In this document: piece by piece, positions 6,198-39,297 of the stretch | Layout: each line of letters begins with the position of its first letter | How positions within the stretch are numbered: position 1 is the first letter of the stretch | Source: an uncultured Victivallales bacterium | Lineage (GTDB): Bacteria > Verrucomicrobiota > Kiritimatiellia > UBA8416 > CAZWPN01 | Assembly: GCA_964635275.1 (NCBI GenBank) | Contig: CAZWPN010000008.1 | Coordinates: 1-50,399 of the forward strand | Direction of reading: 5' to 3' | Length of the DNA stretch: 50,399 bases | Notes under the pieces: model-generated | Database searches by the model: none | What the model was told of the DNA's origin: nothing | The model's input: the letters and a program-made list of their open reading frames with translations, nothing else | Position numbers and translations under genes: made by a program

Positions 6198-6234
6198 CGG
6201 AATGGCAGCTGAAGCTGCCGAGGGGCAGGGTCGG

Positions 6235-7902
6235 ATGCGAACGACAACAAAGCACATTTTCGTGACAGGAGGAGTGGTTTCCTCGCTGGGTAAGGGACTT
6301 ACGTCGGCGGCGCTCGCCCTGCTGCTTTCGCGGCGGGGGTACCGGGTACGTCTGCAGAAGCTCGACCCGTACATCAATGTTGATCCCGGCACGATGTCCC
6401 CATACCAGCACGGGGAAGTGTACGTGACCGATGATGGGGCCGAGACCGACCTTGATCTGGGGCACTACGAGCGGTTTACCGGCGAGCCATGCACGCGGGC
6501 GAGCAACTACACGACGGGTCGGATCTACAGCACAGTGATTTCGCGGGAGCGCGAAGGCGGGTACCTCGGCAAGACGGTGCAGGTGATACCGCACATCACG
6601 GACGAGATCAAGGCGGCGATCCGTTCGCTGGCAGCCGAAGACGTGGATATCGTAATCACCGAGATTGGCGGAACGGCCGGCGACATTGAGTCACTGCCAT
6701 ACTTGGAGGCGATCCGCCAGTTCCGTCAGGAAATAGGGCGCCAAAACGGGCTGTTCATTCACATTACGCTGGTGCCTTTTATCCGGGCAGCCGGCGAGAT
6801 GAAGACTAAGCCGTCACAGCAGTCTGTCGGCATCCTCCGTACGATAGGGATTATTCCAGATATTCTGGTCTGCCGCTGCGAGCATCCTCTTAAGAAGGAA
6901 CACAAGGAGAAGCTTGCGCTGTTCTGCAATGTGGATGAAGAACTGGTGATTGAGGAACGAGATGTCGCCCACTCGATTTACGAGGTTCCTCTGGACCTGG
7001 CCAGGCAGGATGTGGATGTCTATATTCTGGAGAAGCTCAACCTGCACGTGAACCAGATCAATCTGGACGACTGGCGGGAGATGGTTGAGAAGCTGATCCA
7101 TCCGAAGGCCGGTGAGGTTGAGATTGCGGTAGTCGGAAAGTACATCAGCCTGCGAGACTCGTACAAGAGCATCTACGAAGCACTGACTCATGGCGGTGCG
7201 GCGAATAGCGCCAAGGTCAAGGTTCGCATGGTGGAGTCCGAGGACATCGAGAAGCGCGGGGCAGAGGTGCTGCTAGGGGGCGTCGGCGGCATTCTGGTGC
7301 CCGGCGGTTTCGGAAACCGTGGCGTGGAGGGGAAGATTGCGGCGGGCCGTTATGCGCGCGAGCAGAAGATCCCGTACTTCGGGATATGCCTCGGGATGCA
7401 GTGTGCGGTGATGGAGTTCGCGCGCAACGTCTGCGGGCTGGAGGGCGCCAATAGCACCGAGTTTGACCAGCAGACGCCACATCCTGTGATCGATCTCATG
7501 GAGACCCAGCGCACCGTTCAGATGAAGGGCGGCACCATGCGGCTTGGAACCTATCCATGCCGGTTGACCGAGGGAAGCCTTGTGCGCAGGGCTTACGGGG
7601 CGGAGATGATATCCGAGCGGCACCGCCATCGTTACGAGTTCAACAACCGCTATCGTGCCGCGGTTGAGGGATCCGGGATGGTGATCTCCGGGCAGTCGCC
7701 CGATGGGTCGTTGGTTGAGGTAATTGAGCTGCGGGATCATCCATGGTATGTGGCTTGTCAGTTCCATCCGGAATTCAAGTCCACCGCACTCCGGGCTCAC
7801 CCGCTTTTCAGGGATTTCGTGTCTGCGGCCTTGGTTCGCTCCCCAAAGTTGCGTTCGGCGGCGAAGGGTGCTGGCGCCGCGCGGAACCGGTCGGCCGATT
7901 GA
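6235..7902 (+). CDS. pyrG: CTP synthase
   Basis: [42 protein letters not shown]. Alternative start 6202. Confidence 0.98.
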
Positions 7903-7922: not shown

Positions 7923-10900
7923 ATGCCTAGGCGAACAGACATCAAGAAGATCATGCTGATCGGTTCCGGTCCCATCGTGATCGGACAAGCATGTGAATTC
8001 GACTATTCCGGTGTTCAGGCCTGCAAGTCGCTTCGTGAGGAGGGCTACGAGATCGTGCTGGTGAACAGCAACCCGGCGACGATCATGACGGACCCGGAGT
8101 TTGCCGATCGGACATACATCGAGCCGCTGACCGTGGACTGCATCCGGGAGATCATTCGCCGGGAACGGCCAGACGCACTGTTGCCGACGATGGGTGGGCA
8201 GACTGCGTTGAACCTGGCAATCCAGTTGGACGAGCAGGGCGTGCTGCAGCGGTTTGGCGTGGAGATGATTGGCGCTAATCCAGGGGTGATCAGGAAGGCC
8301 GAAGACAGGGGCCTGTTCAAGGCGGCGATGCAACGCATCGGACTGGATGTGCCGCGGAGCGCGTCGGCTCATTCCATCGAGGAGGCCAGGGCGATTCGTA
8401 ACCGGCTCGGCTCGTTTCCTCTGGTCATCCGTCCAGGGTTCACCATGGGAGGAACAGGCGGTGGCATAGCTTTTGACGATAAGGAGTTCGAGGAAATAGT
8501 GCAGCGCGGCCTCTTCTACAGTCCGACGAAAGAGGTGCTGATTGAGGAGTCCGTTCTCGGGTGGAAGGAATTCGAACTCGAGGTTATGCGGGACTGCAAG
8601 GATAACTGCGTCATCGTCTGCTCGATCGAGAACGTGGATCCGATGGGCGTTCATACTGGCGACAGCATCACAGTGGCGCCGGCGCTGACCCTTACCGATC
8701 GGGAATACCAGCGCATGCGTGACGCGGCTATTGCGGTAATGCGCGAGATTGGCGTGGATACCGGTGGGTCCAACGTGCAGTTCGCGATTAACCCCGACGA
8801 CGGGCGGATGGTCGTCGTTGAGATGAATCCCCGGGTCTCTCGCTCCAGCGCGCTTGCATCGAAAGCCACCGGGTTCCCTATCGCAAAGATTGCGGCCAAG
8901 CTGGCGGTCGGATACACCTTGGACGAGATCCGCAACGACATCACGCGTGAGACCCCGGCATGCTTCGAGCCGGCGATCGACTATATAGTCACCAAGATTC
9001 CGCGTTTCGCTTTCGAGAAGTTCGCTGGCGCTGACGACCGGCTGGGCACGCAGATGAAGTCCGTCGGTGAGACGATGAGCATAGGCAAGACATTCAAGCA
9101 GTCCTTCCAGAAGGCGCTGCGGTCGCTGGAGACTGGTCGTGCCGGATTTGGCGCGGATGGCAAGGATCAACGGTTCGAGGGGTTTTCTGACGAGGAACTA
9201 GGCGCCAACCTGACCCGCCCGAACGCCACCAGGGTGTTTGCCATCAGGGCGGCCTACCGCCGGGGGTGGAGCGTGGATAGGATCCATGCGCTGACGCGGA
9301 TTGACCGCTGGTTTCTCCGTCAGTTCGAGGAGCTGGCGGCCTACGAGGATGAGATCCGAAGGGCTGGTGGACTTGGCGGGCTCAAGGCTGACCCCGCGCT
9401 TTTCCGGCAGGCGAAGGAGTTCGGGTATTCGGACCGGCAACTCGCATGGCTCTGCGGGAGCACGGAGTCGGCTGTGCGCGATGCGCGGGAGACGCTGGCT
9501 CTCAAGCCGGTCTATGGGCTGGTGGATACATGTGCAGCGGAGTTCTCGGCCTTTACCCCGTATTTCTACTCGACCTATGGTGGTGTGAACGAGAGCCGAC
9601 CGAGTGGGCGGCGCAAGATCATGATTCTGGGTGGCGGGCCGAACCGGATCGGGCAGGGGATCGAGTTCGACTACTGCTGCGTCCATGCGGCATTCGCGCT
9701 GCGTGACGCTGGGTTTGAGACGATCATGGTGAACAGCAACCCGGAGACGGTCAGCACGGACTACGACACGAGCGACCGCCTGTATTTCGAGCCGCTCACA
9801 TTGGAGGATGTGCTGCATATCTACCGGCACGAAGGGTGTGAGGGGGTGATTGTACAATTTGGCGGGCAAACGCCGCTTAACCTTGCGCGAGACTTGGAGC
9901 GCAACGGCGTGAAAGTCGTCGGAACGAAGCCTGACAGCATTGAGATGGCCGAGGATCGGAAATGCTTCGCCGAGATGGTGGAAAGGCTGGGCATCTGTCA
10001 GCCGGCAAATGGGATTGCCACGACTATTGCCGAGGCGGAACTGATCGCTGAACGGATCGGCTACCCGGTGCTGATGAGGCCGTCGTTTGTGCTTGGCGGC
10101 CGGGCAATGGTAATCGTCTACGACAGGAACATGCTCCACCGCTACATGACCGATGCTGTTGATGTCTCCGAAAAGCGACCGGTACTTGTGGATCATTACC
10201 TTGAGAACGCCATGGAAGTGGATGTTGACTGCATCTCGGACGGGGAAATAGTTGTGATTGGCGCGATCATGGAACATGTGGAATTGGCCGGTATCCATTC
10301 TGGCGACAGCGCGTGCACCATTCCAACCTCCGGGCTGTCGCCCGAGGTTCTGAACACGATCCGGCTGCAAACGGTGGCGATGGCTAAGGAACTGAAGGTC
10401 TGCGGCCTGATGAACGTTCAGTTCGCCGTTCAGAACGAGACGGTCTTTGTCCTTGAGGTCAATCCTCGTGCTTCCCGGACTGTGCCCTTTGTGAGCAAGG
10501 CCATTGGAGTGCCTTTGGCCAAGCTGGGCGCCCTGGTGATGGTGGGGCACAAACTCAAGGATCTCGGGTTCACCCAGGAGTTGAGCACAAAGTACCACTC
10601 CGTCAAGGAGGCGGTGTTCCCGTTTACCCGGTTTCCGGGTGTTGACGTGGTGTTGAGCCCCGAGATGCGGTCCACTGGCGAGGTGATGGGAATAGACTCC
10701 TCGGTGGCCATGGCCTTCCTGAAGAGCCAGGTGGCAGCCGGAAATCCGCTGCCCACCTCAGGAAACGTTTTCCTGAGCGTGCGCGACGACGACAAGGCTG
10801 CCACGTTGCCGTTGGCGCGGCGATTGGTGGAACTGGGGTTCACGATCTACTCCACCAGTGGGACGAGCACGATTCTCCGCGAGAACGGCATCCGAAGCCA

Positions 10901-23705: not shown

Positions 23706-23748
23706 AAGGTGAAACACCGACGCCGTGCGCCGGTGCGAGGGAGGAACA

Positions 23749-24633
23749 ATGGGAGCATCGTGCTGGGCCCGGAATCTGCTGGAGTTGATCCGGCGAACGT
23801 CAACAGATCTTCCGTTGGATGTGGAGTCTGCCATCCGGCGTGCTCTGGCGCGTGAGCGCAAGGGTTCGCATGCGTGGTGGGTCCTTTCTTCGGTGTTGGA
23901 AAGCTCCGACGAATCGAGAAAGAAGAATGTTCCCGTATGCCAGGACACAGGCACGTTAGTCTTCTACTACAGGATACCGGTCGGTTTTGATGCCAACTCG
24001 CTTATTGCAATGACGCGCGGCGCAGTGGCCGAGGCGACGCGGCGTGGCTGGCTTCGCGAGAACACCATTGACTCCATTACCGGCGCCCCGTATCCGGCTA
24101 ACGTGGCCGCCGGGTCCCCCGTGTTCCACTTCATTCAGGGCGCACGCAAGACCATTGACGTGCGTCTGGTTCTAAAAGGCGGCGGGAGCGAGAATGTGGG
24201 GGCGCAGTATGCATTGCCAGACGCGGAAATCGGGGCTGGACGCGATCTGGACGGCGTGCGGCGGTGCATTCTGGATGCCGTATGGAAAGCTCAGGGTAAC
24301 GGCTGTGCTCCCGGTGTTCTCGGTGTGTGCATCGGAGGCGATCGAGCCTCCGGGGCGGCTCACGCCAAGGAGCAGTTTCTTCGACGCCTGGCCGATAGCT
24401 CCGACGTCAAGCTTCTTGCGAGACTCGAACGGCGTTTGGTTAAGGAGTCACAGGGCTTGGGTGTCGGGCCCATGGGGCTGGGGGGGAGGACGACTCTGCT
24501 TGGGGTCAAAATCGGTGCTTTGAGCCGTGTTCCTGCGAGCTATTTCGTGAGTGTTTCATACATGTGCTGGGCATTTCGCAGGCGGGGGGCAGTGATGGGG
24601 GCTGAGGGTGGCGTTCACCGCTGGCTCTACTGA
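23749..24633 (+). CDS. Class I Fe-S fumarate/tartrate hydratase alpha subunit
   Basis: CQDTG, LKGGGSEN, GCAPG, GGD, GPMGLGG, CWAFRR; ATG 23749 after GGAGG. Confidence 0.9.
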   Translation: MGASCWARNLLELIRRTSTDLPLDVESAIRRALARERKGSHAWWVLSSVLESSDESRKKNVPVCQDTGTLVFYYRIPVGFDANSLIAMTRGAVAEATRRGWLRENTIDSITGAPYPANVAAGSPVFHFIQGARKTIDVRLVLKGGGSENVGAQYALPDAEIGAGRDLDGVRRCILDAVWKAQGNGCAPGVLGVCIGGDRASGAAHAKEQFLRRLADSSDVKLLARLERRLVKESQGLGVGPMGLGGRTTLLGVKIGALSRVPASYFVSVSYMCWAFRRRGAVMGAEGGVHRWLY

Positions 24634-24730
24634 ATGAAGTTGGCGGTTTTTGAATCAAGCGCGGTGTGCCGCGTGCATGAGTGTTGGTAATGTCGCGGTG
24701 GCAGTAACCAGTGTGCCGAGGCGGTAGGTC

Positions 24731-25324
24731 ATGACAAAGACACTGAAGGGTCCTTTCACAAGAGAGGTTGTTTCCGAACTCAGGGTGGGGGACCATGTGG
24801 CAATTAGCGGTCGGATCCATTCGGGACGCGATCGGTATCATCGGTACCTCTCCGACGGTGGGCAAAACCCGGTGGACCTGCACGACGGGTGCATCTTCCA
24901 CTGCGGTCCTGTGGTGCTTCAGGCAGGGAACGGATGGGAGGTTTTGGCGGCGGGCCCCACGACATCAGTGCGTGAGGAACTTTACATGGCGGGCATTGTG
25001 GAGCGTGAGGGGGTGCGGTTGATCGTCGGAAAGGGAGGGATGGGCGAGCAGACCCGTCAGGCATGCATCCGGTTTGGTTGCATCTACGTTCAGGCTGTTG
25101 GAGGTGCGGCTGCCCTGGTTGCGCGATGCGTCCGGCGTGTGCATGGCGTCCACTTTTTGCGTGAGTTTGGCTCGGCTGAGGCGGTTTGGGAAATGGATGT
25201 CGAGGGAATGGAGGGCATCGTTACCATGGATACTGCTGGCGGCAGTCTCTACGATCAGGTGCTTAACGATTCTCTGGTAAACCTCAGAAAAGCCATAGGA
25301 CGTTGTCCGCGGGTGGTGCGATGA
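24731..25324 (+). CDS. Class I Fe-S fumarate/tartrate hydratase beta subunit
   Basis: LRVGD, GRD..H, FHCGPV, AGPTTS.R, GKGGMG, GGAA, EAVW, MDT.GGSL. Confidence 0.9.
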   Translation: MTKTLKGPFTREVVSELRVGDHVAISGRIHSGRDRYHRYLSDGGQNPVDLHDGCIFHCGPVVLQAGNGWEVLAAGPTTSVREELYMAGIVEREGVRLIVGKGGMGEQTRQACIRFGCIYVQAVGGAAALVARCVRRVHGVHFLREFGSAEAVWEMDVEGMEGIVTMDTAGGSLYDQVLNDSLVNLRKAIGRCPRVVR

Positions 25325-27350: not shown

Positions 27351-28025
27351 GTGTCCGTAGTCAATGATTCTGTTGTGCGAGAGTACTTCGAGGGCATGGG
27401 GTTTATGGTGGTGCAGCCATGCAAGTACGCCATTCCGGGCCGCCAGAAGCAACCGGAAGAGGAAATGGACCTTCTCATACTGAATCCACGTGATGTTGAG
27501 CACGCGGTGCCGGAGGGGTTTGTGTGGAGCACCAGCGATTTGCGCAACGTCAAGGCGGCTGTCGTGGGAGTGCGTGGGTGGCACACGGAACGATTCTACC
27601 TGTCGAAGATGGAGCAGACCCCCGAGATATGGCGTTTCGCCGACCAGAGCACCCTGGATGTCGCATCGCGAATCCTTGGGACGCGTCAACTGGCCCGGAT
27701 ACTGTGTCTCCCGAGACTGCCGGCGTCTGGCGAACTGAAGCGGCAGACCATCGAGTTTCTGCGAAGCAGGGGTGTTGACGGGGTGCTGCCATTCCGGACC
27801 ATCCTTATGGAACTGCTGACGAGAGTGGATGCCCACCGGAACTACGAGAAATCAGACGTGCTTCAGATTCTTCGCATGCTCAAGAGCTATGACCTGATCA
27901 AGTACGACCAGATGGAGCTGTTCGAGAAGAAACACACCAAAGCGCGTCAACGACGCTCCACGTTGAGCAGCTCAACTGCCGTTGTCGGGTTGCCGGGCGA
28001 CTCCGATTCTCAGGCCGGCTCGTAG
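27351..28025 (+). CDS. Hypothetical protein, possible degenerate PD-(D/E)XK nuclease fold
   Basis: 224-aa ORF in operon after aroB with GGAGG RBS; VREYFEGMGF.V / EEMDLLI / VGVRGW pattern. Confidence 0.7.
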   Translation: MSVVNDSVVREYFEGMGFMVVQPCKYAIPGRQKQPEEEMDLLILNPRDVEHAVPEGFVWSTSDLRNVKAAVVGVRGWHTERFYLSKMEQTPEIWRFADQSTLDVASRILGTRQLARILCLPRLPASGELKRQTIEFLRSRGVDGVLPFRTILMELLTRVDAHRNYEKSDVLQILRMLKSYDLIKYDQMELFEKKHTKARQRRSTLSSSTAVVGLPGDSDSQAGS

Positions 28026-30004
28026 ATGAACAGCGCCTGATCCTTGGTAACCGCCTGTCCGTGTTCGACCAGGCACTTGACGATCTTACAGTTGCATGGC
28101 GCCTTGATCTGGTTAAACAGTTTCATGGCCTCCACAGTGCAGACCGGATCGCCTGCCTTTACGGTGTCGCCTGCCTTGGCGAAGATGGGCTTTCCAGGTC
28201 CTGACGACCGGTACAGCGTTCCGTTCAGGGGTGCTTTGATTGTCAATGCGTTGCTTGCTGCCTTCTCAGGGACCTGTTCCGCTTTGGGTGGCGGCGGTTT
28301 GGCGGCCGCGGCTGGCTTCGCTGCCGGCTGTGTGGTGGACTTGGCATCTGGGCTGCCGGCTTCCTGCTGAACTGCGACCCCCTCGGATTTGAGGCTCAAT
28401 GTCAAGTCGTTGCGACGAATGACGATCTCGTTGAAATTGAGCTGATGCACTTTGTCCAGCAACTGCTGGATTTCGCGATAGTCTTCGTTGGAAAGGAATG
28501 CCTGAGGCGTCGCGGACGCTTCCGCCGGGGCGGTCTTTTGCTCCTTGGCCTTCTTTTCCTTCATCAATTCGATGTCGGCTGGTGGGGTGGCGCGTTCCTC
28601 AATGGGCGTGTTGCGCCAGCGGAAGTAGTCTAGAGCGACTTCTGGGAACAGGCAGTAGGACAGGATGTCTTCCTCGGTCTTTATCAGGCTCGGGTCCACA
28701 TTAGTTGTGGCCTGCGGAAGCATCGGTGGCAGAAGGTCCGCCGGTCGACACGTGATGAGTTTCTCTTCTCCAAGGATTTTCTTTCGGATGCGAGGGGCGA
28801 TCGGCGCGGGTGATCGACCATACATCCCCCGCACATAGTCCTTGGTTTCCTGCGTAACCATTTTATAGCGCTCGCCGGACAGCACGTTCAGGACAGATTG
28901 GACGCCAACTATCTGGCTGGTCGGCGTCACGAGGGGCGGATAGCCGAGATCGGCACGAACCAGCGGCAACTCCGTTAGCACCTCATCCAGACGGTCCAGC
29001 GCGTTCTGCTGCTGCAGTTGTGAGCGCAGATTGGAGATCATGCCGCCAGGGATGTGGTGAATGAGGATTTCAGGATCGATGACGTTATCCGGCTGATGGC
29101 TGAGACGGCGCTCCGGCGCCAGTTTGATGAAGTAGTCACACATCTTCCTAAGCGCCGACACGTCAAGATTGGCGTGGTAATAAGTCTCTTCGAAGATAGC
29201 CAGCATGGTCTCCACGGGTGGCTGGGATGAGAACCCGGCCATTGGCGAGATTGCACAATCGATGGCACCGGCGCCGGCGACAACACCTTCCACATAAGTT
29301 GCCGTGGCCATTCCGCTGGTGGCGTGGGAATGGATCTGGATCGGAACCTTCACCTCCCGAAGCAGGGCCGAAACGAGCTTGCGGCAGGATATCGGTGAGA
29401 GAATTCCGGCCATGTCCTTGATGCAGATTGAGTCCACGCCGATCGCCGTCAACTCGTGAGCGATGCGACAGAACTCCTTCACCGTGTGCATCGGGCTGAT
29501 TGTGTAGCAGATGGTTCCCTGAGCGTGGCCGCCGTATTTCTTCACGGACTTGATTGCCTGCTCGACATTGCGGGTATCGTTGAGTGCGTCGAATACCCGG
29601 AAGATATCAATGCCGTTCTGACATGCCAACGCAATGAACCGATCGAGCATGTCGTCCGGGTAATTCCGATAACCGACCACGTTTTGTCCACGAAGGAGCA
29701 TCTGTAGTGGCGTCTTCTTGCACTTGGATTTGATCTGACGCAGTCGCTCCCAAGGGTTCTCGCGAAGGAACCGCAGGCATGTGTCGAAAGTTGCGCCGCC
29801 CCACACCTCCAGGGAGTAGAATCCCGCCGCGTCAACAGTGTCAACAATACCCAGAATGTCCTTGGTGCGCATGCGCGTCGCCCACAGCGACTGGTGCGCG
29901 TCACGAAGGGTTGTATCCGTTATGCGCAAAGGTATACGGTGCATACGCTTGTGTGCTGCTTCGGCTTCGGCGCTGGCATCGGTCTCTTTGTCAGTGTTAT
30001 TCAT
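28010..30004 (-). CDS. Pyruvate/oxaloacetate carboxyltransferase (PycB/OadA/5S-like) fused to an AccB-type biotin carboxyl carrier protein
   Basis: CT motifs: LRDAHQS, EVWGGATFD, PWERL, MLLRGQN, IKDMAG, HSH, PGGM.SN, GYPPLVTPTSQIVG. C-terminus: AccB-like helical N-segment, Ala/Pro linker, EAMK biotinylation site. Confidence 0.93.
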   Translation of the reverse strand: MNNTDKETDASAEAEAAHKRMHRIPLRITDTTLRDAHQSLWATRMRTKDILGIVDTVDAAGFYSLEVWGGATFDTCLRFLRENPWERLRQIKSKCKKTPLQMLLRGQNVVGYRNYPDDMLDRFIALACQNGIDIFRVFDALNDTRNVEQAIKSVKKYGGHAQGTICYTISPMHTVKEFCRIAHELTAIGVDSICIKDMAGILSPISCRKLVSALLREVKVPIQIHSHATSGMATATYVEGVVAGAGAIDCAISPMAGFSSQPPVETMLAIFEETYYHANLDVSALRKMCDYFIKLAPERRLSHQPDNVIDPEILIHHIPGGMISNLRSQLQQQNALDRLDEVLTELPLVRADLGYPPLVTPTSQIVGVQSVLNVLSGERYKMVTQETKDYVRGMYGRSPAPIAPRIRKKILGEEKLITCRPADLLPPMLPQATTNVDPSLIKTEEDILSYCLFPEVALDYFRWRNTPIEERATPPADIELMKEKKAKEQKTAPAEASATPQAFLSNEDYREIQQLLDKVHQLNFNEIVIRRNDLTLSLKSEGVAVQQEAGSPDAKSTTQPAAKPAAAAKPPPPKAEQVPEKAASNALTIKAPLNGTLYRSSGPGKPIFAKAGDTVKAGDPVCTVEAMKLFNQIKAPCNCKIVKCLVEHGQAVTKDQALFIYEPA

Positions 30005-30034
30005 GTCATATACCTCGTGTGGGTCATGGAATGT

Positions 30035-30988
30035 TCAGCGTTTCTTCATGCGGCCCATAGCGCAGAATTTCTCGAACCGTTGTTGGATCAGATATTTTGG
30101 CGATGCGCGTCGCCACGTTTTCAGCTGATCGATCAGAGCGCTCTTTACGGACGCGAACACGGCCGTGGGGTTGCGGTGGGCGGCTCCTGGAGGCTCTGGA
30201 ACGATCTTGTCAATGATCTTCAGGGCGAGCAGGGAAGGGGCGGTGACCTTGAGCGCCTCCGCTGCTTCCGGAGCCTTGGCCCCGTCGCGCCATAGAATCG
30301 AGGCGCAGCCTTCGGGAGAGATCACGGAGTAGATGGCGTAGGAAAGCATCAGCACCGAGTTCCCGACAGCGATACCCAAGGCGCCGCCGCTTCCGCCTTC
30401 ACCGGTGATAATAACGATGACAGGAACCGTCAGCTTGGCCATCTCCTCCAGATTACGCGCTATCGCTTCCGCCTGCCCTCGGGCTTCCCCTTCCAGGCCC
30501 GGGTAGGCGCCGGGTGTGTCAACAAAACACAGAATGGGAATGCGGTACTTCTGGGCAAGTTTCATGAGGCGAAGGGCCTTGCGATATCCTTCGGGGTTGC
30601 CCATGCCGAAGTTCGCCTTGACGTTCTCCTCTACTGTCTTTCCTTTCTGATGACCGATGACCATGACACGGAAACCATCGATCTTGGCAAATCCGCCGAT
30701 GATCGCATGGTCGTCACCAAAGGATCGGTCGCCATGGAGTTCGATGAACTCGGAGAAGACCGCCCCAAGGTAGTCCCGAATGGTGGGGCGCTCAGGATGG
30801 CGCGCGACTTGCACAGTCTGCCACGGTGTTAGCTTGGCGTAGATCGCAGTCAGCAGCTCGCTGTGCTGCTTTTCCATCTCAAGTATTCTGGCAGCATTGG
30901 GATGCGATGCGTCGGATTCGTCCTGCTTCCTTAGCGCCGCGATGTCGGCTTCTAGAGCGACGACTGGCTTTTCAAAGTCGAGTTCCAT
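30035..30988 (-). CDS. accA: Acetyl-CoA carboxylase carboxyltransferase alpha
   Basis: LDFEKP, LTPWQTVQVARHPERP, ELHGDR.FGDD, DTPGAYPG, GEGGSGGAL, YSVISPEGCASILW. Confidence 0.97.
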   Translation of the reverse strand: MELDFEKPVVALEADIAALRKQDESDASHPNAARILEMEKQHSELLTAIYAKLTPWQTVQVARHPERPTIRDYLGAVFSEFIELHGDRSFGDDHAIIGGFAKIDGFRVMVIGHQKGKTVEENVKANFGMGNPEGYRKALRLMKLAQKYRIPILCFVDTPGAYPGLEGEARGQAEAIARNLEEMAKLTVPVIVIITGEGGSGGALGIAVGNSVLMLSYAIYSVISPEGCASILWRDGAKAPEAAEALKVTAPSLLALKIIDKIVPEPPGAAHRNPTAVFASVKSALIDQLKTWRRASPKYLIQQRFEKFCAMGRMKKR

Positions 30989-31043
30989 GGCTTTGGCCTC
31001 CGGAAAGTTATGGGCTCTGGGACTTCGTCAGATTCCGATGTCT

Positions 31044-31880
31044 TTATCGGTTCCAGTATCCAAGGACCTTGGCTAGGAAGTCCCTCATCTCTCGTCGATC
31101 CACTATCTTGTCAATAAATCCGTGTTCCAAGGTGTACTCGGCGGTCTGGAAATCATCCGGAAGCTTTTGCTTGATCGTCTGCTCGATGACGCGTCGGCCT
31201 GCAAACCCGATGAGGGCACGCGGCTCGGCGATATTCAGGTCGCCGAGCATGGCGTAACTCGCGGAGACCCCACCGGTTGTGGGATCAGTCATTATCGATA
31301 TATAAGGAATACCAGCAGCGTTCAACTTGGCTATGCCAGCGCAGGTCTTGGCCATCTGCATGAGCGATACGATCCCCTCGTGCATGCGGGCACCGCCTGA
31401 GGCCGAGACAATAACGTAGGGGAGTTTGTGCTTCAGTGCGTACATGGCCCCGAGAAGAATCTTTTCGCCGGTGCCGCTGGCAAGACTGCCGCCCAGAAAT
31501 CGGAAGTCCATCACGGCGAGCATCAGGTGGATGTTGTTAATCTTGCCACGTCCGGTAACTACCGCTTCCTTGAGCCCTGTTTCCGCCTTGACCGATACAG
31601 CCTTGTCGGAATAGCTGCCTTTTGCATCCTTGAAATTCAGTGGGTCCGACGTTGTGACTTCGGAGAAAAGCTCTTTGAAACTGTTAGGGTCCAACAACAT
31701 TTGTATGCGTTCAGGGGCGGATAGCCGCTCGTGATACCCGCACTTGGGGCAAACCTTGAAAGTGGCAAGCCACTCATCCCTGTACATGTGGGCCTTACAA
31801 GAGTTGCAGATGGTCCAGATTTCCTTCGTTTCCTCTGGAACGACGACGGTATTGCTCTTGCTCCTGGTGAACCAACCCAT
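31044..31880 (-). CDS. accD: Acetyl-CoA carboxylase carboxyltransferase beta
   Basis: Zn ribbon CNSC..CPKC, MDFRFLGGS, SGGARMHEG, PTTGGVSAS, IGFAGRRVI, FQTAE. Confidence 0.97.
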   Translation of the reverse strand: MGWFTRSKSNTVVVPEETKEIWTICNSCKAHMYRDEWLATFKVCPKCGYHERLSAPERIQMLLDPNSFKELFSEVTTSDPLNFKDAKGSYSDKAVSVKAETGLKEAVVTGRGKINNIHLMLAVMDFRFLGGSLASGTGEKILLGAMYALKHKLPYVIVSASGGARMHEGIVSLMQMAKTCAGIAKLNAAGIPYISIMTDPTTGGVSASYAMLGDLNIAEPRALIGFAGRRVIEQTIKQKLPDDFQTAEYTLEHGFIDKIVDRREMRDFLAKVLGYWNR

Positions 31881-32026
31881 GGGGAACACGGCTCCTTTTT
31901 TTCTGCTTGGTCGGCATACTGGCCACTGTGAGCTCAGATTTCAAGAAGAAAAAGGCATGTATTGGAGTGTTTTTCGGGAACGGCGCTGAAATGGGCGCTA
32001 AATATACTCAAATTATGTTGCTGATG

Positions 32027-32055
32027 TTGCGAAACGGGGTGGGAATAGGTAGTAT
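32027..32055 (+). promoter_or_regulatory. Sigma70-like promoter of the rsmD-coaD-...-fab cluster
   Basis: TTGCGA-17 nt-TAGTAT; the rsmD GTG begins 7 nt after the -10 box. Confidence 0.5.
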
Positions 32056-32061
32056 TTTCGG

Positions 32062-32658
32062 GTGAGAATCACAGGTGGTAGTTTGAGGGGTCGAGAATTG
32101 AAGGTGCCGCGCAAGGGGGTCCGTCCGACTCAGGACAGGGTGCGGCAGGCGCTTTTTTCGATGCTGGGGGACCGTGTTGTTGGGTCTCGCTTTGCCGACA
32201 TTTATGCGGGGTCGGGCGCAGTGGGTCTGGAGGCGTGGAGTCGCGGGGCGGTTTCCGTATGTTGGGTGGAGAAAGACGAAAGGGTGTTTTCAGTTCTCAA
32301 AAGCAATGTGCTTGAGCTGTGCGGCCGCGAGGCCGTTCGGTTGGTGAACAGCAGTGCAAAACGCTTCATCGAACGGTCTTTATCCGACGAATTCGATCTA
32401 ATTTACTGTGACCCGCCCTACGAATTCGGCCCGGAAGAACTGCTCCAGGTTCAGGTTGCGTTGACGCATACCAAGATGCTGTCCCCACAAGGGTTGGCGG
32501 TGATGGAGGTCGGCGCGAGGTTGGATGTTCCGCTGTGCGGGTGCACGGTTATGGAGGATCGAACATACGGGGAGACAAGAATCCTGTTTCTTGGTTGCAT
32601 CCAGGGTCGTGAGCCGGCTGACAAAGAGTCCGGGGAAGGTGACGAGGATAAGAAATGA
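32062..32658 (+). CDS. rsmD: 16S rRNA (guanine966-N2)-methyltransferase
   Basis: MRITGG.LRGREL, RPTQDRVRQALF, YAGSGAVGLEA.SRGA, DPPY, YGET. Confidence 0.95.
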   Translation: MRITGGSLRGRELKVPRKGVRPTQDRVRQALFSMLGDRVVGSRFADIYAGSGAVGLEAWSRGAVSVCWVEKDERVFSVLKSNVLELCGREAVRLVNSSAKRFIERSLSDEFDLIYCDPPYEFGPEELLQVQVALTHTKMLSPQGLAVMEVGARLDVPLCGCTVMEDRTYGETRILFLGCIQGREPADKESGEGDEDKK

Positions 32659-33773: not shown

Positions 33774-33956
33774 ATGGCTGTACCGAAGAGAAAAACGTCA
33801 AAGATGAAGATAAGGACGCGCAAAGCGTCTCACAGGCGAGTTGTAACGGCCACGTCGCCGTGTCCCAACTGCCAGGCGCCCCGCAGACCTCACCGGGTGT
33901 GTCCCTCGTGCGGATACTATCGCGGGCGTCAGGTGGTTACGGTCGAGACAGCCTAG
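33774..33956 (+). CDS. rpmF: 50S ribosomal protein bL32 (Zn-ribbon form)
   Basis: MAVPKRKTSK..R.RK; CPNC..PHRVCPSCGYYRG; AAGGAG RBS. Confidence 0.97.
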   Translation: MAVPKRKTSKMKIRTRKASHRRVVTATSPCPNCQAPRRPHRVCPSCGYYRGRQVVTVETA

Positions 33957-33958
33957 CC

Positions 33959-34966
33959 ATGCGGATTGCCGTTGACGCCATGGGGGGCGATCATGCTCCC
34001 CGCGAGATTGTTCTGGGCGCAGTGAAGGCGGCAAGGGAGCTGCCGGATCTGACCAGCGTTATTCTGGTAGGCGACAGCGCGGCGATTCAGTGTGAACTGG
34101 ATGCCGGCGGTGGGACTCCTGACAACGTGGTGATTCTGCATGCCGCCGAGGTTATTGGCATGGACGAATCGCCGGCGCAGGCGATTCGGCGCAAGCGGGA
34201 TTCATCAATCAGCCGTGCGATGGAACTGGTGAAGCGTGGGGAAGCCGATGCGATGGTTTCGGCCGGAAATACCGGCGCTTTGGTAGTGGCCGCAACCTTG
34301 ATGTTGCGCACTCTTAAGGGGGTGGACCGGCCGGCTATTGCCGCTGTCATGCCCACGCGCAAGGGCCCGTTTGTTCTGGTCGATGCCGGAGCCAATCCGG
34401 AGTGCGATGCGTCATTATTGCGGCAGTTCGCTGTGATGGGTGAGCTGTACGCGCGGGTCATACTTGGCAAAGCTAACCCGGTAGTCGGGTTGCTGGGCAT
34501 CGGGGTGGAGGCATCAAAGGGTAACGAGGTTACGCGCGAAGCCTTCGGGTTGCTTAAGAGCACACGGATTAACTTCAAGGGTAATGTCGAGGGACACGAC
34601 CTTTTCGAAGGCGATGTCGATGTGGTGGTGTGCGACGGGTTTACGGGCAATGTGGTTCTGAAGACATCCGAGAGCGCGGCTCGGGCGATTTCCCACTGGA
34701 TGCGGCAGGAGTTCACCAGAACCCCGATTCGCAAATTCGGGGCTTTGTTGCTGAGCGGTGCGCGAAAGAGTATGAAGGCGCGAATGGATCCCGAGATGTA
34801 CGGTGGTGCTCCGTTGCTTGGCGTAAACGGCATCTGCATCAAGATTCATGGCGGATCTTCGCGGAGGGCGGCGTTCCACGGCATTCGGGTGGCCTGCGCG
34901 TCGGCGCATGAGCATCTGAATGACATGATTGAAAAAGGAATAGCGGACAGTTCGAGGGCGCAATGA
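33959..34966 (+). CDS. plsX: Phosphate acyltransferase
   Basis: MRIAVDAMGGDHAP, SAGNTGA, DRPAIA, GNVEG, CDGFTGN, GGAPLLGVNG. Confidence 0.97.
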   Translation: MRIAVDAMGGDHAPREIVLGAVKAARELPDLTSVILVGDSAAIQCELDAGGGTPDNVVILHAAEVIGMDESPAQAIRRKRDSSISRAMELVKRGEADAMVSAGNTGALVVAATLMLRTLKGVDRPAIAAVMPTRKGPFVLVDAGANPECDASLLRQFAVMGELYARVILGKANPVVGLLGIGVEASKGNEVTREAFGLLKSTRINFKGNVEGHDLFEGDVDVVVCDGFTGNVVLKTSESAARAISHWMRQEFTRTPIRKFGALLLSGARKSMKARMDPEMYGGAPLLGVNGICIKIHGGSSRRAAFHGIRVACASAHEHLNDMIEKGIADSSRAQ

Positions 34967-35964
34967 ACGGAGTATCAAAGCAGGGAATCAAGGCGGCCAT
35001 TGTGGGGACCGGGTCCTACTTGCCGGAGCGTATCCTTTCCAATGCGGAACTGGAGAAGAGTGTCGACACAACCGACGAGTGGATTGTGACTCGCACTGGC
35101 ATACGAACTCGGCACATTGCGCGTGATGACGAAGCTACATCGGACATGGCAGCCTTGGCTGCGCAGCGGGCCATCGAAAGCGCTGGGATCAACCCGATGG
35201 ACATCGGCCTTCTGCTGGTGGCCACCGTAACCCCGGACATGCCTTTCCCAAGTACGGCGTGTTTTGTGCAGGAGAAGATCAAGGCGAAGAATGCGGTATG
35301 TTTCGATGTTGAGGCAGCGTGCTCCGGTTTTCTTTTTGCGGTGGAAACGGCCCGCCAGTACATTGAGAATGGGACTTACAGCACTGCGCTGGTGATAGGC
35401 GCGGAGAAATTGAGCGTTATTACCGACTGGAAGGATAGGGCGACATGCGTCCTGTTCGGTGACGGCGCCGGAGCCGTGGTGCTGCGGCGCAGTGAGACGG
35501 GAACCGGGATTCTTGGGAGTGTTATGGGTTCGGACGGAGCGCTAACAGCTCTCCTTAATGTTCCAGGCGGCGGGAGCCGTAATCCCATCAGTACATCCAT
35601 GATCGAGCAACGGCTGCCCTTCATCAGGATGACCGGGAATGAGGTTTTCAAGCACGCGGTGCGCTGCATGTGCGACGCCGCTCAGCGGGCGGTGGCTGCG
35701 TCGGGCCATACTATAGGAGATGTTGACTGGGTTGTTCCTCACCAGGCCAACATGCGGATTGTCCAGGCAATTGCCGACCGGCTAGGCGACGCAATGCCAA
35801 AATTCATCGTTAACCTGGATCGCGTGGGGAACATGTCTGCTGCCTCCATACCCGTGGCCCTTGACGAAGCGGTGCGGGCTGGCAGGATACAGCCTGGGCA
35901 TAAAGTTCTTTTCGTGGCGTTTGGCGGCGGGTTTACGTGGGGTGCCTCTCTGATTCAATGGTAG
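34963..35964 (+). CDS. fabH: Beta-ketoacyl-ACP synthase III
   Basis: WIVTRTGI, AACSGF, LFGDGAGA, PHQAN, GNMSAAS, GGGFTWG. Confidence 0.97.
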   Translation: MNGVSKQGIKAAIVGTGSYLPERILSNAELEKSVDTTDEWIVTRTGIRTRHIARDDEATSDMAALAAQRAIESAGINPMDIGLLLVATVTPDMPFPSTACFVQEKIKAKNAVCFDVEAACSGFLFAVETARQYIENGTYSTALVIGAEKLSVITDWKDRATCVLFGDGAGAVVLRRSETGTGILGSVMGSDGALTALLNVPGGGSRNPISTSMIEQRLPFIRMTGNEVFKHAVRCMCDAAQRAVAASGHTIGDVDWVVPHQANMRIVQAIADRLGDAMPKFIVNLDRVGNMSAASIPVALDEAVRAGRIQPGHKVLFVAFGGGFTWGASLIQW

Positions 35965-35977
35965 ATGGAGAATCGCA

Positions 35978-36904
35978 ATGACAAATAGGGCGATGGTGTT
36001 TGCGGGGCAGGGCGCGCAGTTCGTGGGAATGGGCAAGGACTTGGCCGATGCATATCCTGCCTGTGCTGCGCTGTTCAAGAAGGCGGATGATGTTCTGGGC
36101 TACTCGCTTTCGAGTCTGTGTTTCGCGGGGCCAGTTGAAGCGCTGACGAAATCCAACGTGTGTCAGCCGGCGATCTTTGTGACGAGCGCGGTCTGTCGCG
36201 CAGCGCTCCTTGAACGGAAGCCTGCCCTTGAATGGGTCGGGTTGGCGGGCCTGAGTTTAGGCGAATGGTCGGCGCTCTATGCTGGTGGCGTACTGAGTTT
36301 TGAAGACACGCTTCGGGTTCTGGAGGCTAGGGGGCGGTTCATGCAGGAGGCGTGCGAGGAGAACCCGGGTGGTATGGTCAGCGTGATGGGGCTTGCGGAG
36401 GAAAAACTTCGCTCTGTGTGCGCTGCGACAGGCGTCGAAGTGGCCAACCTGAACTCGGCAGACCAGATTGTGTTGTCTGGACCGAAGGCGGCGATCGCCG
36501 AGGCCGAAAAGGCGGCTCAGGCGGCTGGCGCCAAGAAGACGGTGGTGCTCAGCGTGGCAGGAGCCTTTCATTCGCCTCTCATGGCGTCGGCTGCGAAAAA
36601 ACTGGAGGCCACGCTTGACTCTGTGGCGATGAGGGCGCCTGGGATTACTGTGCTGTCAAACGTAACTGGTCAACCGCATGGCGGAACGGAGTCCATTAAG
36701 GAAGCCATGGTGCGGCAGGTGTGCGGGACGGTCCGGTGGGCGGATTGTATAGAATGGTTTAGGCAGCATGGGACGACCGGGTACGTGGAGTGTGGACCAG
36801 GCAGGGTCCTGAGCGGGTTGATCAAGCGTGTGGATGGAATCGCCGCACTTGCTAATGTGCAGGACAGGCCCTCGCTTGACAAGGCGGCAGAATCACTGGC
36901 GTGA
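35978..36904 (+). CDS. fabD: Malonyl-CoA:ACP transacylase
   Basis: FAGQGAQ.VGMG, QPAI, GLSLGE, RGRFM, GAFHS, ECGPG. Confidence 0.97.
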
Positions 36905-36933
36905 GTATTGATCGTGACACGGAGGTTGGCGAT

Positions 36934-37677
36934 ATGGGAATACTTGACGGTAAGGTGGCTGTGGTGACTGGAGCGGCCCGTGGAATCGGGCGCGCGATTG
37001 CGGAGTCGTTAGCGGATGCCGGCGCGGACGTTGCCGTATGCGATATTCAGGAGGCTTGGTTGGCCGATACGGCGGCAGCCTTGGCGGCCCGTTCGCGCCG
37101 AACGCTTACCCTGGCCGTGGACGTCGGCAATGCCGAGGCTGTTAATGCTGCCGTGGCTCGGGTTATCGAGACATTCGGCAGGGTTGACATCATGGTTAAC
37201 AATGCCGGGATTACGAAGGACGGCTTGCTGGTTCGGATGTCCGACGAAGACTGGGATGCCGTCATAAACGTGAACCTGAAAGGAACCTTTCTGTTTACGA
37301 GGGCCGTTGCCAAGCCCATGATGAAACAGCGTAGCGGAGTGATTGTCAATATTGCCTCAATTATTGGCTTGATCGGCAACGCCGGGCAGTGTAATTATTC
37401 CGCCTCGAAGGCAGGGGTGATTGCATTGACCAAGTCGAGCGCAAAGGAGCTGGCGTCTCGAAACATACGCGTCAATGCCGTGGCGCCGGGGTTCATCGAG
37501 TCGAAGATGACTGAAGCGCTGTCGGAAGAAATCCGCAAGAAAATGTTGGATACCATTCCTATGCAGCGCTTTGGAACGCCGGGTGACGTGGCCAATGCCG
37601 TAGTGTTCCTGTCGGGGGATTCGTCGTCGTACCTTACAGGGCAGGTGATCAACGTGAACGGCGGAATGGTGATGTGA
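36934..37677 (+). CDS. fabG: 3-oxoacyl-ACP reductase
   Basis: [27 protein letters not shown]; GGAGG RBS before ATG 36934. Confidence 0.96.
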
Positions 37678-37731
37678 GTGAGGTTTGGGAGAGTAGGGGG
37701 GTAGGTTAACCTTAAGGAAGGAGCTAGGATT

Positions 37732-37971
37732 ATGGCGCTTGAAGACAAAGTGAAGGAGATCATTGTAGAACAGTTGGGAGTCAATGCCGATCAGGTGACT
37801 CCAGAGGCATCCTTTACAGAGGATCTTGGTGCGGATTCGCTCGATACAGTGGAACTCGTCATGGCGTTCGAAGAGGAGTTTGGCCAGGAGATTCCTGACG
37901 AGGAAGCTGAGAAGCTGAAGACTGTTGGAACGGTGATCGAGTATCTCAAGGGTAAGGGCATAACGGCCTAA
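37732..37971 (+). CDS. acpP: Acyl carrier protein
   Basis: [21 protein letters not shown]; acidic 79-aa protein. Confidence 0.98.
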
Positions 37972-37991
37972 CGATTTCTCACGAGGCGATG

Positions 37992-38027
37992 GACCGAAGC
38001 ATGCCCCGGCTGGCGGCTTCGGTCTTT
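37992..38027 (+). terminator. Stem-loop between acpP and fabF (partial terminator or mRNA stabiliser)
   Basis: GACCGAAGC (37992-38000) pairs with GCTTCGGTC (38016-38024), followed by TTT. Confidence 0.55.
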
Positions 38028-38055
38028 CGCTAGTGGGTGGGACGACGTCTGAAAC

Positions 38056-39297
38056 ATGAGAAAAGCAGTAATAACCGGCATAGGGGTGGTTACGCCGTTG
38101 GGATGCGACACCAAGGTGTTTTGGGATCGTATCAAGGCTGGGCAGTCCGGCATCAAGCGAATCACCAAATTTGATACAACGGCCTACGACAGCAAGATTG
38201 CGGGGGAGGTGGAGGGGTTCGACCCTCTGAAGTTCATCGAGAAGAAGGAACTTCGGCGGATGGACGAGTTCTGCCACTATATACTTGCCTGCTCGAAGAT
38301 GGCTATTGCTGACTCAGGCCTGAACCTTGCAGTCGAGACGCCGGAGCGCATCGGAGTTGTTGCCGGTTCTGGAATAGGAGGACTTCAGACGCTTCAGACC
38401 CAGCACACTGTCCTGAAAGAGAAGGGGCCTGGGCGCTGTTCGCCTTTCATGATTCCCATGATGATTCCGAACATTGCTGCTGGTTTGGTAGCGATCCAGA
38501 GCGGTCTGAAGGGGCCGAATTTCGCGATCGTCACCGCTTGCGCGACCGCCGCACATTCCGTGGGGGAAGCGCTTAAGTTGATCCAGCGCAACGACGCCGA
38601 CATCATACTTGCTGGCGCTTCAGAGGCGTGCGTCTGCGAGCTTGGTGTGGCCGGATTCTGTGCTATGGGCGCTTTGTGTACGACGTCCAACGACGATCCT
38701 ACCAAAGCCAGTCGTCCGTTTGATGCCAACCGGTCCGGCTTCGTTATGGGCGAAGGCGGGGCGATGCTTGTGGTGGAGGAGTATGAGCATGCGCGTAGGC
38801 GCAACGCGACGATCTACTGCGAGTTGTCTGGTTTCGGCATGACGTGTGATGCCTTCCATATTACCGCTCCGGCGGATGATGGAGCAGGCGCCGCCCGCGC
38901 AATGACACTGGCTATGGCAGACGCCGCACTTTGTCCGGGCGACGTTGACTATATCAACGCCCATGGTACGAGCACAAATCTGAACGACAAGATTGAGACA
39001 CGTGCAATAAAGACGGCGCTGGGCGAGGCCAGGGCTCGCCAGATCATGGTTAGTTCCACAAAGTCCATGACCGGGCATCTGCTTGGTGCAGCGGCTGGCA
39101 TAGAGCTGGCGGTATGCGCGATGGCGCTTCGCGATGGGATTGTGCCGCCGACCATCAACTATGAGACACCGGATCCCGACTGCGATTTGGACTATGTGCC
39201 GAATGCGGCGCGCAACGTGCCCATCCGGGCATGCCTGAAGAATTCGCTGGGCTTTGGCGGGCATAATGCCTGCGTGGCCTTGCGGAAACTGGCGTAG
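38056..39297 (+). CDS. fabF: Beta-ketoacyl-ACP synthase II
   Basis: VITGIG.VTPLG, TACATA, NAHGTST, KSMTGHLLGAA, NSLGFGGHN. Confidence 0.97.
   Translation: MRKAVITGIGVVTPLGCDTKVFWDRIKAGQSGIKRITKFDTTAYDSKIAGEVEGFDPLKFIEKKELRRMDEFCHYILACSKMAIADSGLNLAVETPERIGVVAGSGIGGLQTLQTQHTVLKEKGPGRCSPFMIPMMIPNIAAGLVAIQSGLKGPNFAIVTACATAAHSVGEALKLIQRNDADIILAGASEACVCELGVAGFCAMGALCTTSNDDPTKASRPFDANRSGFVMGEGGAMLVVEEYEHARRRNATIYCELSGFGMTCDAFHITAPADDGAGAARAMTLAMADAALCPGDVDYINAHGTSTNLNDKIETRAIKTALGEARARQIMVSSTKSMTGHLLGAAAGIELAVCAMALRDGIVPPTINYETPDPDCDLDYVPNAARNVPIRACLKNSLGFGGHNACVALRKLA

Follow-up and report, generated by a model that had tools for sequence, protein, structure and literature searches.

The DNA considered here, referred to as the window, is a stretch of 50,399 nucleotides (nt) from an uncultured freshwater Victivallales bacterium of the class Kiritimatiellia (assembly GCA_964635275.1, contig CAZWPN010000008.1, C8 in our numbering). 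Its minus strand carries accD, accA and a gene for a 664-residue fusion protein, in that order, with gaps of 55 nt (30989-31043) and 30 nt (30005-30034). The fusion joins a carboxyltransferase (CT) of the PycB/OadA/5S type to a biotin carrier of the AccB type, and its coordinates are listed with those of its neighbours in Table 1. Judged from the genome sequences, the three genes probably encode an ATP-independent oxaloacetate:acetyl-CoA transcarboxylase that replaces acetyl-CoA carboxylase (ACC). A preliminary description of the window had reported three co-oriented, tightly spaced genes divergent from a plsX-fab cluster, and both the coordinates of the open reading frames (ORFs) and the equivalog models bear this out.

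An accD-accA operon and its fusion gene

The first two genes are ordinary members of their families. The accD product scores 356.1 bits against the NCBI equivalog TIGR00515 (cut-off 317.45) and is therefore called AccD. It also matches Carboxyl_trans, and its zinc-ribbon match of 23.8 bits lies just below the cut-off of 24.5. We place its start at a GTG codon, nine nucleotides upstream of the ATG at 31880 that was chosen earlier. The accA product scores 429.2 bits against the NCBI equivalog TIGR00513 (cut-off 319.3) and matches Pfam ACCA at 4.8e-137. Mean column identity over 20 orthologues is 70% for accD and 68% for accA, and a profile search of the whole genome with PF01039 recovers these two genes only.

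The fusion contains the Pfam domains HMGL-like (aa 145-288), PYC_OADA (aa 313-482) and Biotin_lipoyl (aa 588-659). The best solved relatives of aa 26-499 are PycB (5ks8_C, 3.1e-146), V. cholerae OadA (2nx9, 2.6e-139) and the transcarboxylase 5S subunit (1rqb, 7.7e-127), the last of which matches aa 26-489. D35, K196, H225 and H227 of the fusion align opposite D17, K178, H207 and H209 of 2nx9, which we take to bind the metal in OadA or, in the case of the lysine, to be carbamylated. These four residues are invariant in 24 fusion orthologues, as are P319-L326 (PGGMISNL) and E625, A626, M627 and K628 of the EAMK motif, whose lysine is presumably the site of biotinylation. Among family models, the fusion falls below the PycB equivalogs NF010644 (607 bits, cut-off 734) and NF010645 (531.5 bits, cut-off 1182), below the oadA model TIGR01108 (705.8 bits, cut-off 756.5) and far below the 5S equivalog NF008984 (500.2 bits, cut-off 827).

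The C-terminal part of the fusion corresponds to AccB over nearly its whole length. Of the 156 positions of the AccB model TIGR00531, residues 508-661 cover 2-154, at 103.4 bits. The module also matches full-length E. coli AccB (4hr7_B, 2.1e-16), and its alignment with the free AccB of a closed relative from the same class (32% identity, 7e-17) runs from one end to the other. The OadA paralogue of the same genome is 46% identical to the fusion, with no significant alignment past aa 476, and it has no TIGR00531 match at E <= 1e-8. An AccB-type carrier is kept in all fusion orthologues tested, those of the closed genome G211 and of G048 included (74-103 bits to TIGR00531), and the orthologue of G018 passes the model at 117 bits. 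In an AlphaFold2 model of the fusion (mean pLDDT 79.1, pTM 0.73), the barrel with the helical domain and the biotinyl domain (587-663) are confident; between them come a helix and hairpin (506-539) and a disordered segment (aa 533-583). The gene thus encodes a predicted PycB/5S-type carboxyltransferase joined to a complete AccB, and not to the usual OadA/PycB carrier. At least 587 database proteins of similar length share the AccB-type tail. The best 120 of these all carry carboxyltransferase and biotinyl domains, and their names, where given, are 'oxaloacetate decarboxylase alpha subunit' or 'BCCP'; the longer fused relatives among the matches listed are almost exclusively pyruvate carboxylases.

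Table 1. Positions of the operon genes, the parts of the fusion and the fatty-acid synthesis cluster in the window
Feature	Position	Strand	Remarks
accD (carboxyltransferase beta subunit)	31044..31889	minus	281 aa from GTG 31889
accA (carboxyltransferase alpha subunit)	30035..30988	minus	317 aa
Fusion: PycB/OadA/5S-type carboxyltransferase + flexible linker + AccB-type carrier	28010..30004	minus	664 aa
Carboxyltransferase domain of fusion, proposed oxaloacetate/pyruvate site	28559..29929	minus	aa 26-482
AccB-type module of fusion: N-terminal helix/hairpin, Pro/Ala linker, biotinyl domain	28013..28492	minus	aa 505-664
Codon of Lys628 in the EAMK motif, predicted biotin attachment site	28121..28123	minus
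plsX-fabH-fabD-fabG-acpP-fabF, type II fatty-acid synthesis genes (malonyl-CoA consumers)	33860..39297	plus	Pfam

Divergent plus-strand genes begin 173 nt upstream of accD, in the order rsmD-like, coaD, yceD, plsX, fabH, fabD, fabG, acpP, fabF and ileS. The type II fatty-acid synthesis (FAS II) genes among them belong to the Pfam families FA_synthesis, ACP_syn_III, Acyl_transf_1, adh_short_C2, PP-binding and ketoacyl-synt. They had been called adjacent to the operon; the cluster is indeed divergent from it, but plsX starts about 2 kb away and so does not directly adjoin it. Downstream of the operon, the plus strand carries class I fumarase, fmt, aroB and a 224-aa ORF without a Pfam family (27351-28025), which runs towards the fusion gene and shares 16 nt with its 3' end. 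The fumarase has two subunits (23725-25324, plus strand), and carB lies at about 7941-10580 on the same strand. A carB gene also adjoins the unlinked fusion gene of the closed genome G211 (L095:496-3696), which is probably a coincidence. Scans for promoters and terminators over 27800-32200 gave nothing exceeding shuffled expectation.

Three freshwater metatranscriptome runs, all belonging to one study, contain contigs that fall on all three operon genes at 95-100% identity, and one RNA contig (29553-30077) bridges the gap between accA and the fusion gene. These contigs are a weak hint of expression. No metatranscriptome contig covers 27300-27842, in the region of the 224-aa ORF, though a DNA run does. 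Within the carboxyltransferase domain, one contig in each of the three RNA runs skips 75 nt (25 codons, in frame) at window 28951-29027. The shorter side of this skip has only 21 matching letters and the skip is not seen in DNA run X2; it is probably an artefact of assembly or comes from a relative.

Biotin carboxylase in the genome and across the class

The assembly comprises 4.05 Mb on 377 contigs and is 95.02% complete and 0.56% contaminated. As the preliminary description stated for accC, a separate accB and oadB, the window holds no biotin-carboxylase domain, no further biotinyl domain and no OadB. A search of the whole assembly, which had been proposed as a check, likewise found neither a biotin carboxylase nor a separate accB; it did find an oadG-oadA-oadB cluster, on contig C59. 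The Biotin_carb_C (PF02785) and Biotin_carb_N (PF00289) profiles have 0 matches each. The accC model gives three weak matches (54.6, 43.8 and 23.4 bits, cut-off 626.5), two of them in the CarB of the window and one in PurD. The PurD match, on contig C1, was considered as a divergent biotin carboxylase and rejected. In tblastn searches with five accC proteins of same-order relatives and a 1518-aa fused carboxylase, only CarB and accA were matched.

The absence of a separate accB comes from a Biotin_lipoyl search across the assembly. Biotin_lipoyl has seven matches, and the EAMK motif occurs only in the fusion and in the 600-aa OadA. Judged by their motifs, the five remaining matches fall to two lipoyl proteins of the E2 type, a further small lipoyl protein, GcvH and a protein resembling RnfC. 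A 165-aa Biotin_lipoyl ORF on C52 was considered as accB and rejected, because its site, TSKA, is of the lipoyl type and its tail is E3-binding-like. The fusion gene does not adjoin oadB or oadG, which lie on C59 with their own OadA; this OadA passes the oadA cut-off (760.8 bits, cut-off 756.5). A canonical accB-accC pair combined with a PycA or OadBG partner for the fusion, the finding that the preliminary description had named as its counter-evidence, was thus not encountered in the genome. The genome also encodes a GTP-type phosphoenolpyruvate (PEP) carboxykinase (PEPCK_GTP) and two BirA homologues. The genes for these BirA-type biotin ligases lie at G000:C28:2401-3105 and G000:C59:12259-12960, the second of which immediately precedes the oadG-oadA-oadB cluster and points away from it. 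Each biotin protein may have a ligase of its own.

The preliminary description proposed to profile the fusion against biotin carboxylase, and we did so in 251 Kiritimatiellia genomes at least 90% complete, using the Biotin_carb_C profile and counting fusion relatives at E <= 1e-100. Biotin_carb_C was found in 152 of the 251. A fusion relative was found in 107, a count that includes one genome in which the match is only an OadA-like paralogue (G061, 47% identity) and four that hold contig-end fragments (G031, G059, G075 and G167). Across the class, the fusion and biotin carboxylase nearly exclude one another: 98 genomes have the fusion only, 143 biotin carboxylase only, nine have both and one has neither. 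Together with the missing biotin carboxylase and accB, this pattern supports the earlier idea of a possible ATP-independent transcarboxylase.

The same order is represented by 41 genomes, among them the present one. Biotin_carb_C was found in 10 of these and a full-length fusion orthologue (64-71% identity) in 36, two of which are interrupted, one by the end of its contig and the other by a split across two contigs. The fusion stands by itself in 28 of the 41, eight have both, two, of family f9, have biotin carboxylase only and three have neither; these three are a genome that is 63% complete, another that is 76% complete, and G023. Closed genomes of the class show both states. G211, a single closed contig of 6.1 Mb, has the fusion and an intact accD-accA pair 2.5 Mb away, and neither the N- nor the C-terminal biotin-carboxylase domain was found in it. 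In G082 and G233, which are closed and do have biotin carboxylase, accB and accC form an ordinary pair that exceeds both cut-offs. In the phylum at large (401 genomes), orthologues at E <= 1e-180 occur in 56 genomes, all within the class; among 268 genomes of 39 other families of the phylum there are none at that threshold.

Gene order was compared in 89 related loci. The fusion gene has accA immediately upstream in 61, and all three genes stand in the same order in 53, so the arrangement is not due to chance. Carboxyltransferase-domain identity is 62-100% among 87 fusion orthologues and 44-54% between these and nine OadA paralogues of the class. A FastTree phylogeny of carboxyltransferase-domain columns separates fusions from OadA paralogues, with local supports of 0.81-1.0 depending on rooting.

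Several genomes depart from the common arrangement. G048 encodes a 616-aa AccD-AccA fusion that passes both equivalog cut-offs (contig C2, L128:3723-5573), followed after 12 nt by a 563-aa CT::AccB gene (L128:5586-7277). This arrangement is a step towards a single-chain enzyme. The f9 family of the same order is without the fusion and has instead a single chain of 1518-1522 aa (G008:C8, L114:3252-7808; G028:C35, L115:1505-6073) with an AccA-like carboxyltransferase, Carboxyl_trans and complete biotin-carboxylase domains; the chain of G028 has a weak biotinyl-like match near its C-terminus. The f9 chain is a third way to build the enzyme within one order. G023, which is 93% complete, is the sole one of the 251 class genomes with neither biotin carboxylase nor fusion. 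It has accD, a 132-aa ORF without an NCBIfam family and accA, with no fusion downstream, and also oadB followed by a divergent 643-aa OadA-like gene that is 29% identical to the fusion (C150, L117; C201, L129). Outside the class, Thermotoga maritima is the only one of 14 control genomes without a Biotin_carb_C or Biotin_carb_N match, and it has OadB and a Carboxyl_trans gene. According to excerpts of Lombard and Moreira (2011), Thermotogales, Spirochaetes and Actinobacteria have no ACC-type biotin carboxylase. Related solutions may be in use in further lineages that lack biotin carboxylase.

A proposed transcarboxylation route and its alternatives

In the first step of the proposed cycle, the PycB/5S-type domain of the fusion would take a carboxyl group from oxaloacetate, releasing pyruvate, and load it on the biotin of the AccB-type carrier at the C-terminus of the same protein. 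The carrier would then swing on a disordered Pro/Ala linker of about 50 residues to AccA/AccD, which would hand the carboxyl group to acetyl-CoA. The net reaction would be oxaloacetate + acetyl-CoA -> pyruvate + malonyl-CoA, and the malonyl-CoA would go to FabD and the neighbouring FAS II genes. The GTP-type PEP carboxykinase of the genome could be the source of oxaloacetate, in which case no ATP would be spent on carboxylation beyond glycolysis. The overall reaction is expected to lie near equilibrium; for the methylmalonyl-CoA version, a value of about -2 kJ/mol is given in excerpts of a review (PMC8085960). The decarboxylative condensation of FAS II would pull the reaction forward. The domain make-up, the conserved catalytic and biotinylation residues, the gene order, the failure of the biotin-carboxylase searches and the distribution over genomes are observed; the substrates, the direction of the reaction and any physical complex of the three proteins are inferred. 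Because the sole AccB-type carrier is tied to an oxaloacetate/pyruvate-biotin domain and no ATP-dependent loader was found, a cycle loaded from oxaloacetate is the simplest working one. On balance, we lean towards the wider view that a large and mostly uncultured branch of the Kiritimatiellia has discarded biotin carboxylase altogether and makes all of its malonyl-CoA through transcarboxylation by AccD/AccA and CT::AccB.

Several observations weigh against the transcarboxylase. All of the support is genomic, and in an assembly of 377 contigs the absence of biotin carboxylase means 'not found' and is not proof. The best family match of the fusion is the generic 'pyruvate carboxylase subunit B' domain model NF006761, which it passes at 778.4 bits (cut-off 402), and its AccB module stays below the TIGR00531 equivalog cut-off of 115.2 bits. 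A lone accC occurs besides the fusion in ten relatives, and OadB is present in 73 of the 98 genomes that have the fusion only, among them the present genome. In 28 of the 89 loci neither accA nor accD lies in the fetched flank, some of these flanks being short. The RNA contigs prove neither transcription nor a single transcript.

The alternative that survives best, though it is unlikely, keeps the three genes together and changes the chemistry: an unrecognised enzyme that is not homologous to the ATP-grasp biotin carboxylases would load the carrier, or AccA/AccD and the fusion would use another pair of acyl-CoA and 2-oxo acid. Substrate specificity cannot be read from sequence, and the Propionibacterium transcarboxylase is described in excerpts of PMC8085960 as taking several acyl-CoAs. 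Here, however, AccA and AccD both exceed the cut-offs of the ACC equivalogs, the genome has no other acyl-CoA carboxyltransferase, FabD and FabH need malonyl-CoA, and no candidate enzyme is linked to the operon.

Slightly less credible is a partnership with OadB, in which the fusion would be a second alpha subunit of the Na+-pumping oxaloacetate decarboxylase, or a Na+ gradient would run the pump backwards and so drive biotin carboxylation for AccA/AccD. The genome does encode OadB and OadG, OadB accompanies the fusion in most fusion-only genomes, and the fusion scores 705.8 bits against the oadA model. The oadGAB cluster, however, has an alpha subunit of its own above the cut-off that the fusion fails, the carrier is of the AccB type, and in most loci the fusion gene is linked to accDA and not to oadB. 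Moreover, OadB is missing in 25 of the 98 fusion-only genomes, so the Na+ pump is not a general partner.

A hybrid ATP-dependent enzyme, in which a biotin carboxylase missing from the assembly loads a carrier that serves both pyruvate and acetyl-CoA carboxylation, is very improbable for this genome. Its best support comes from the ten related genomes with the fusion and a lone accC (G001, G013, G018, G021, G027, G032, G038, G040, G152 and G226), where the carrier can presumably be loaded with ATP, so that the fusion by itself does not exclude biotin carboxylase. Five of these accC products were scored, and all exceed the accC cut-off (677-693 bits). The same five genomes have no separate accB, and the only strong AccB-model matches in them are the tail of the fusion. 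No carrier or carboxyltransferase gene lay among the 40 of 78 candidate ORFs scanned in the neighbourhoods of these biotin-carboxylase genes, a result that does not extend to the neighbourhood in G038. The fusion in this order also keeps a segment like the N-terminus of AccB, and in E. coli the N-terminal segment of AccB contacts AccC. In such genomes one carrier probably serves the biotin carboxylase, the pyruvate site and the acetyl-CoA site, and they look like an intermediate state. Against the hybrid enzyme here stand three profiles and the tblastn searches with in-order queries, none of which found a biotin carboxylase in a genome that is 95% complete. The domain is also missing in 98 of the 251 genomes of the class, one of them a closed chromosome, which chance loss from assemblies cannot explain. 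The possibility that an AccC encoded elsewhere loads the carrier, which the preliminary description had left beside its main proposal, thus seems to apply to the ten relatives and seemingly not to this genome. One further observation concerns G027, in which accC lies directly upstream of a gene for a GTP-type PEP carboxykinase on the same strand (G027:C99, L107:3980-5785 and 6218-7636); this adjacency links the carboxylase to oxaloacetate metabolism.

Least probable of all is that the fusion acts as nothing more than a soluble oxaloacetate decarboxylase, or survives as a relic, with fatty acids taken up and accDA idle: nothing speaks for it directly, although many members are host- or particle-associated fermenters, judging by record titles, and the conserved carboxyltransferase domain over 87 species, the invariant catalytic residues and biotin lysine, the equally conserved accA and accD and the complete plsX-fab cluster nearby all speak against it.

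Comparison with known biotin enzymes

AccC-dependent carboxylation of acetyl-CoA is regarded as the obligatory, ATP-costing start of bacterial fatty-acid synthesis, and AccC is an antibiotic target. A free-living clade without AccC would change this picture. If the transcarboxylase is real, the ATP-dependent opening step of FAS II, supposed to be universal, would have been replaced here for the first time in any bacterial lineage. Those relatives that keep a lone accC would then represent living intermediates, with a single carrier that serves all three sites. About one ATP would be saved per two-carbon unit, a gain for energy-limited anaerobes, and metabolic engineers would have a natural, dedicated and ATP-free route to malonyl-CoA. 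According to excerpts of a 2021 review (PMC8085960), transcarboxylation has not yet been used for ATP-free supply of malonyl-CoA. There would also be consequences for annotation: since the fusions are named 'oxaloacetate decarboxylase alpha subunit' or 'BCCP' in databases, metabolic models of Kiritimatiellia would either miss malonyl-CoA synthesis or wrongly charge ATP for it.

Compared with heteromeric ACC (AccABCD), the system described here has in common an AccA/AccD pair above the equivalog cut-offs, a carrier of the AccB type, albeit one that scores below the AccB cut-off, the product and the FAS II that consumes it. It differs in that no AccC was found, in that AccB is the tail of a PycB-type carboxyltransferase, and in that the proposed carboxyl donor is oxaloacetate in place of bicarbonate and ATP. 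OadA and PycB resemble the fusion in their carboxyltransferase domain, which is 46% identical to the OadA of the genome and has PycB 5ks8_C as its best solved relative. Unlike them, the fusion carries an AccB-type carrier, scores below the oadA cut-off and is encoded away from oadB and oadG, and no PycA was found in the genome.

The Propionibacterium transcarboxylase (EC 2.1.3.1; 12S, 5S and 1.3S subunits) is, like the proposed enzyme, a biotin enzyme that works without ATP and has a 5S-type oxaloacetate/pyruvate site. Its 12S subunit is a single chain and its 1.3S carrier is small and free, whereas here AccA and AccD are split and an AccB carrier is fused to the 5S-type domain, which does not reach the 5S equivalog cut-off. 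Like the Propionibacterium enzyme, the proposed one has no biotin carboxylase component, as far as the genome searches show. The Propionibacterium enzyme also takes acetyl-CoA (Swick and Wood, 1960, as cited in excerpts of PMC8085960).

The closest functional parallels are found in protists. Malonyl-CoA formation from acetyl-CoA and oxaloacetate is reported for an Entamoeba enzyme (Clark, 2007; Barbosa-Cabrera, 2012; both as cited in excerpts of PMC8136499). The Giardia fusion enzyme (Jordan, 2003) and its retortamonad and Monocercomonoides orthologues are described as (methyl)malonyl-CoA:pyruvate transcarboxylases in excerpts of PMC7985675 and PMC12308965. As far as these excerpts describe them, the transcarboxylases of Entamoeba histolytica, Giardia, Mastigamoeba, retortamonads and Monocercomonoides ('ACCT/PycB') carry out the same net reaction as is proposed here. 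They too do without a biotin carboxylase, and they are built from a biotin carrier and two carboxyltransferases, one for acyl-CoA and one of the pyruvate-carboxylase type. The protist enzyme, compared by description only, is one fused polypeptide that feeds fatty-acid elongation, whereas three bacterial genes here would supply a full FAS II. The bacterial system could be related to the protist enzyme. Our search of the literature found no bacterial system of AccD/AccA with CT::AccB and no report of biotin-carboxylase loss in Kiritimatiellia, an earlier mention being possible. The net reaction is not new, and the bacterial AccD/AccA and CT::AccB form is the new aspect as far as the literature searched goes. 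The enzyme appears to be a bacterial, multi-subunit form of a known reaction that seems to have replaced ACC in a large clade.

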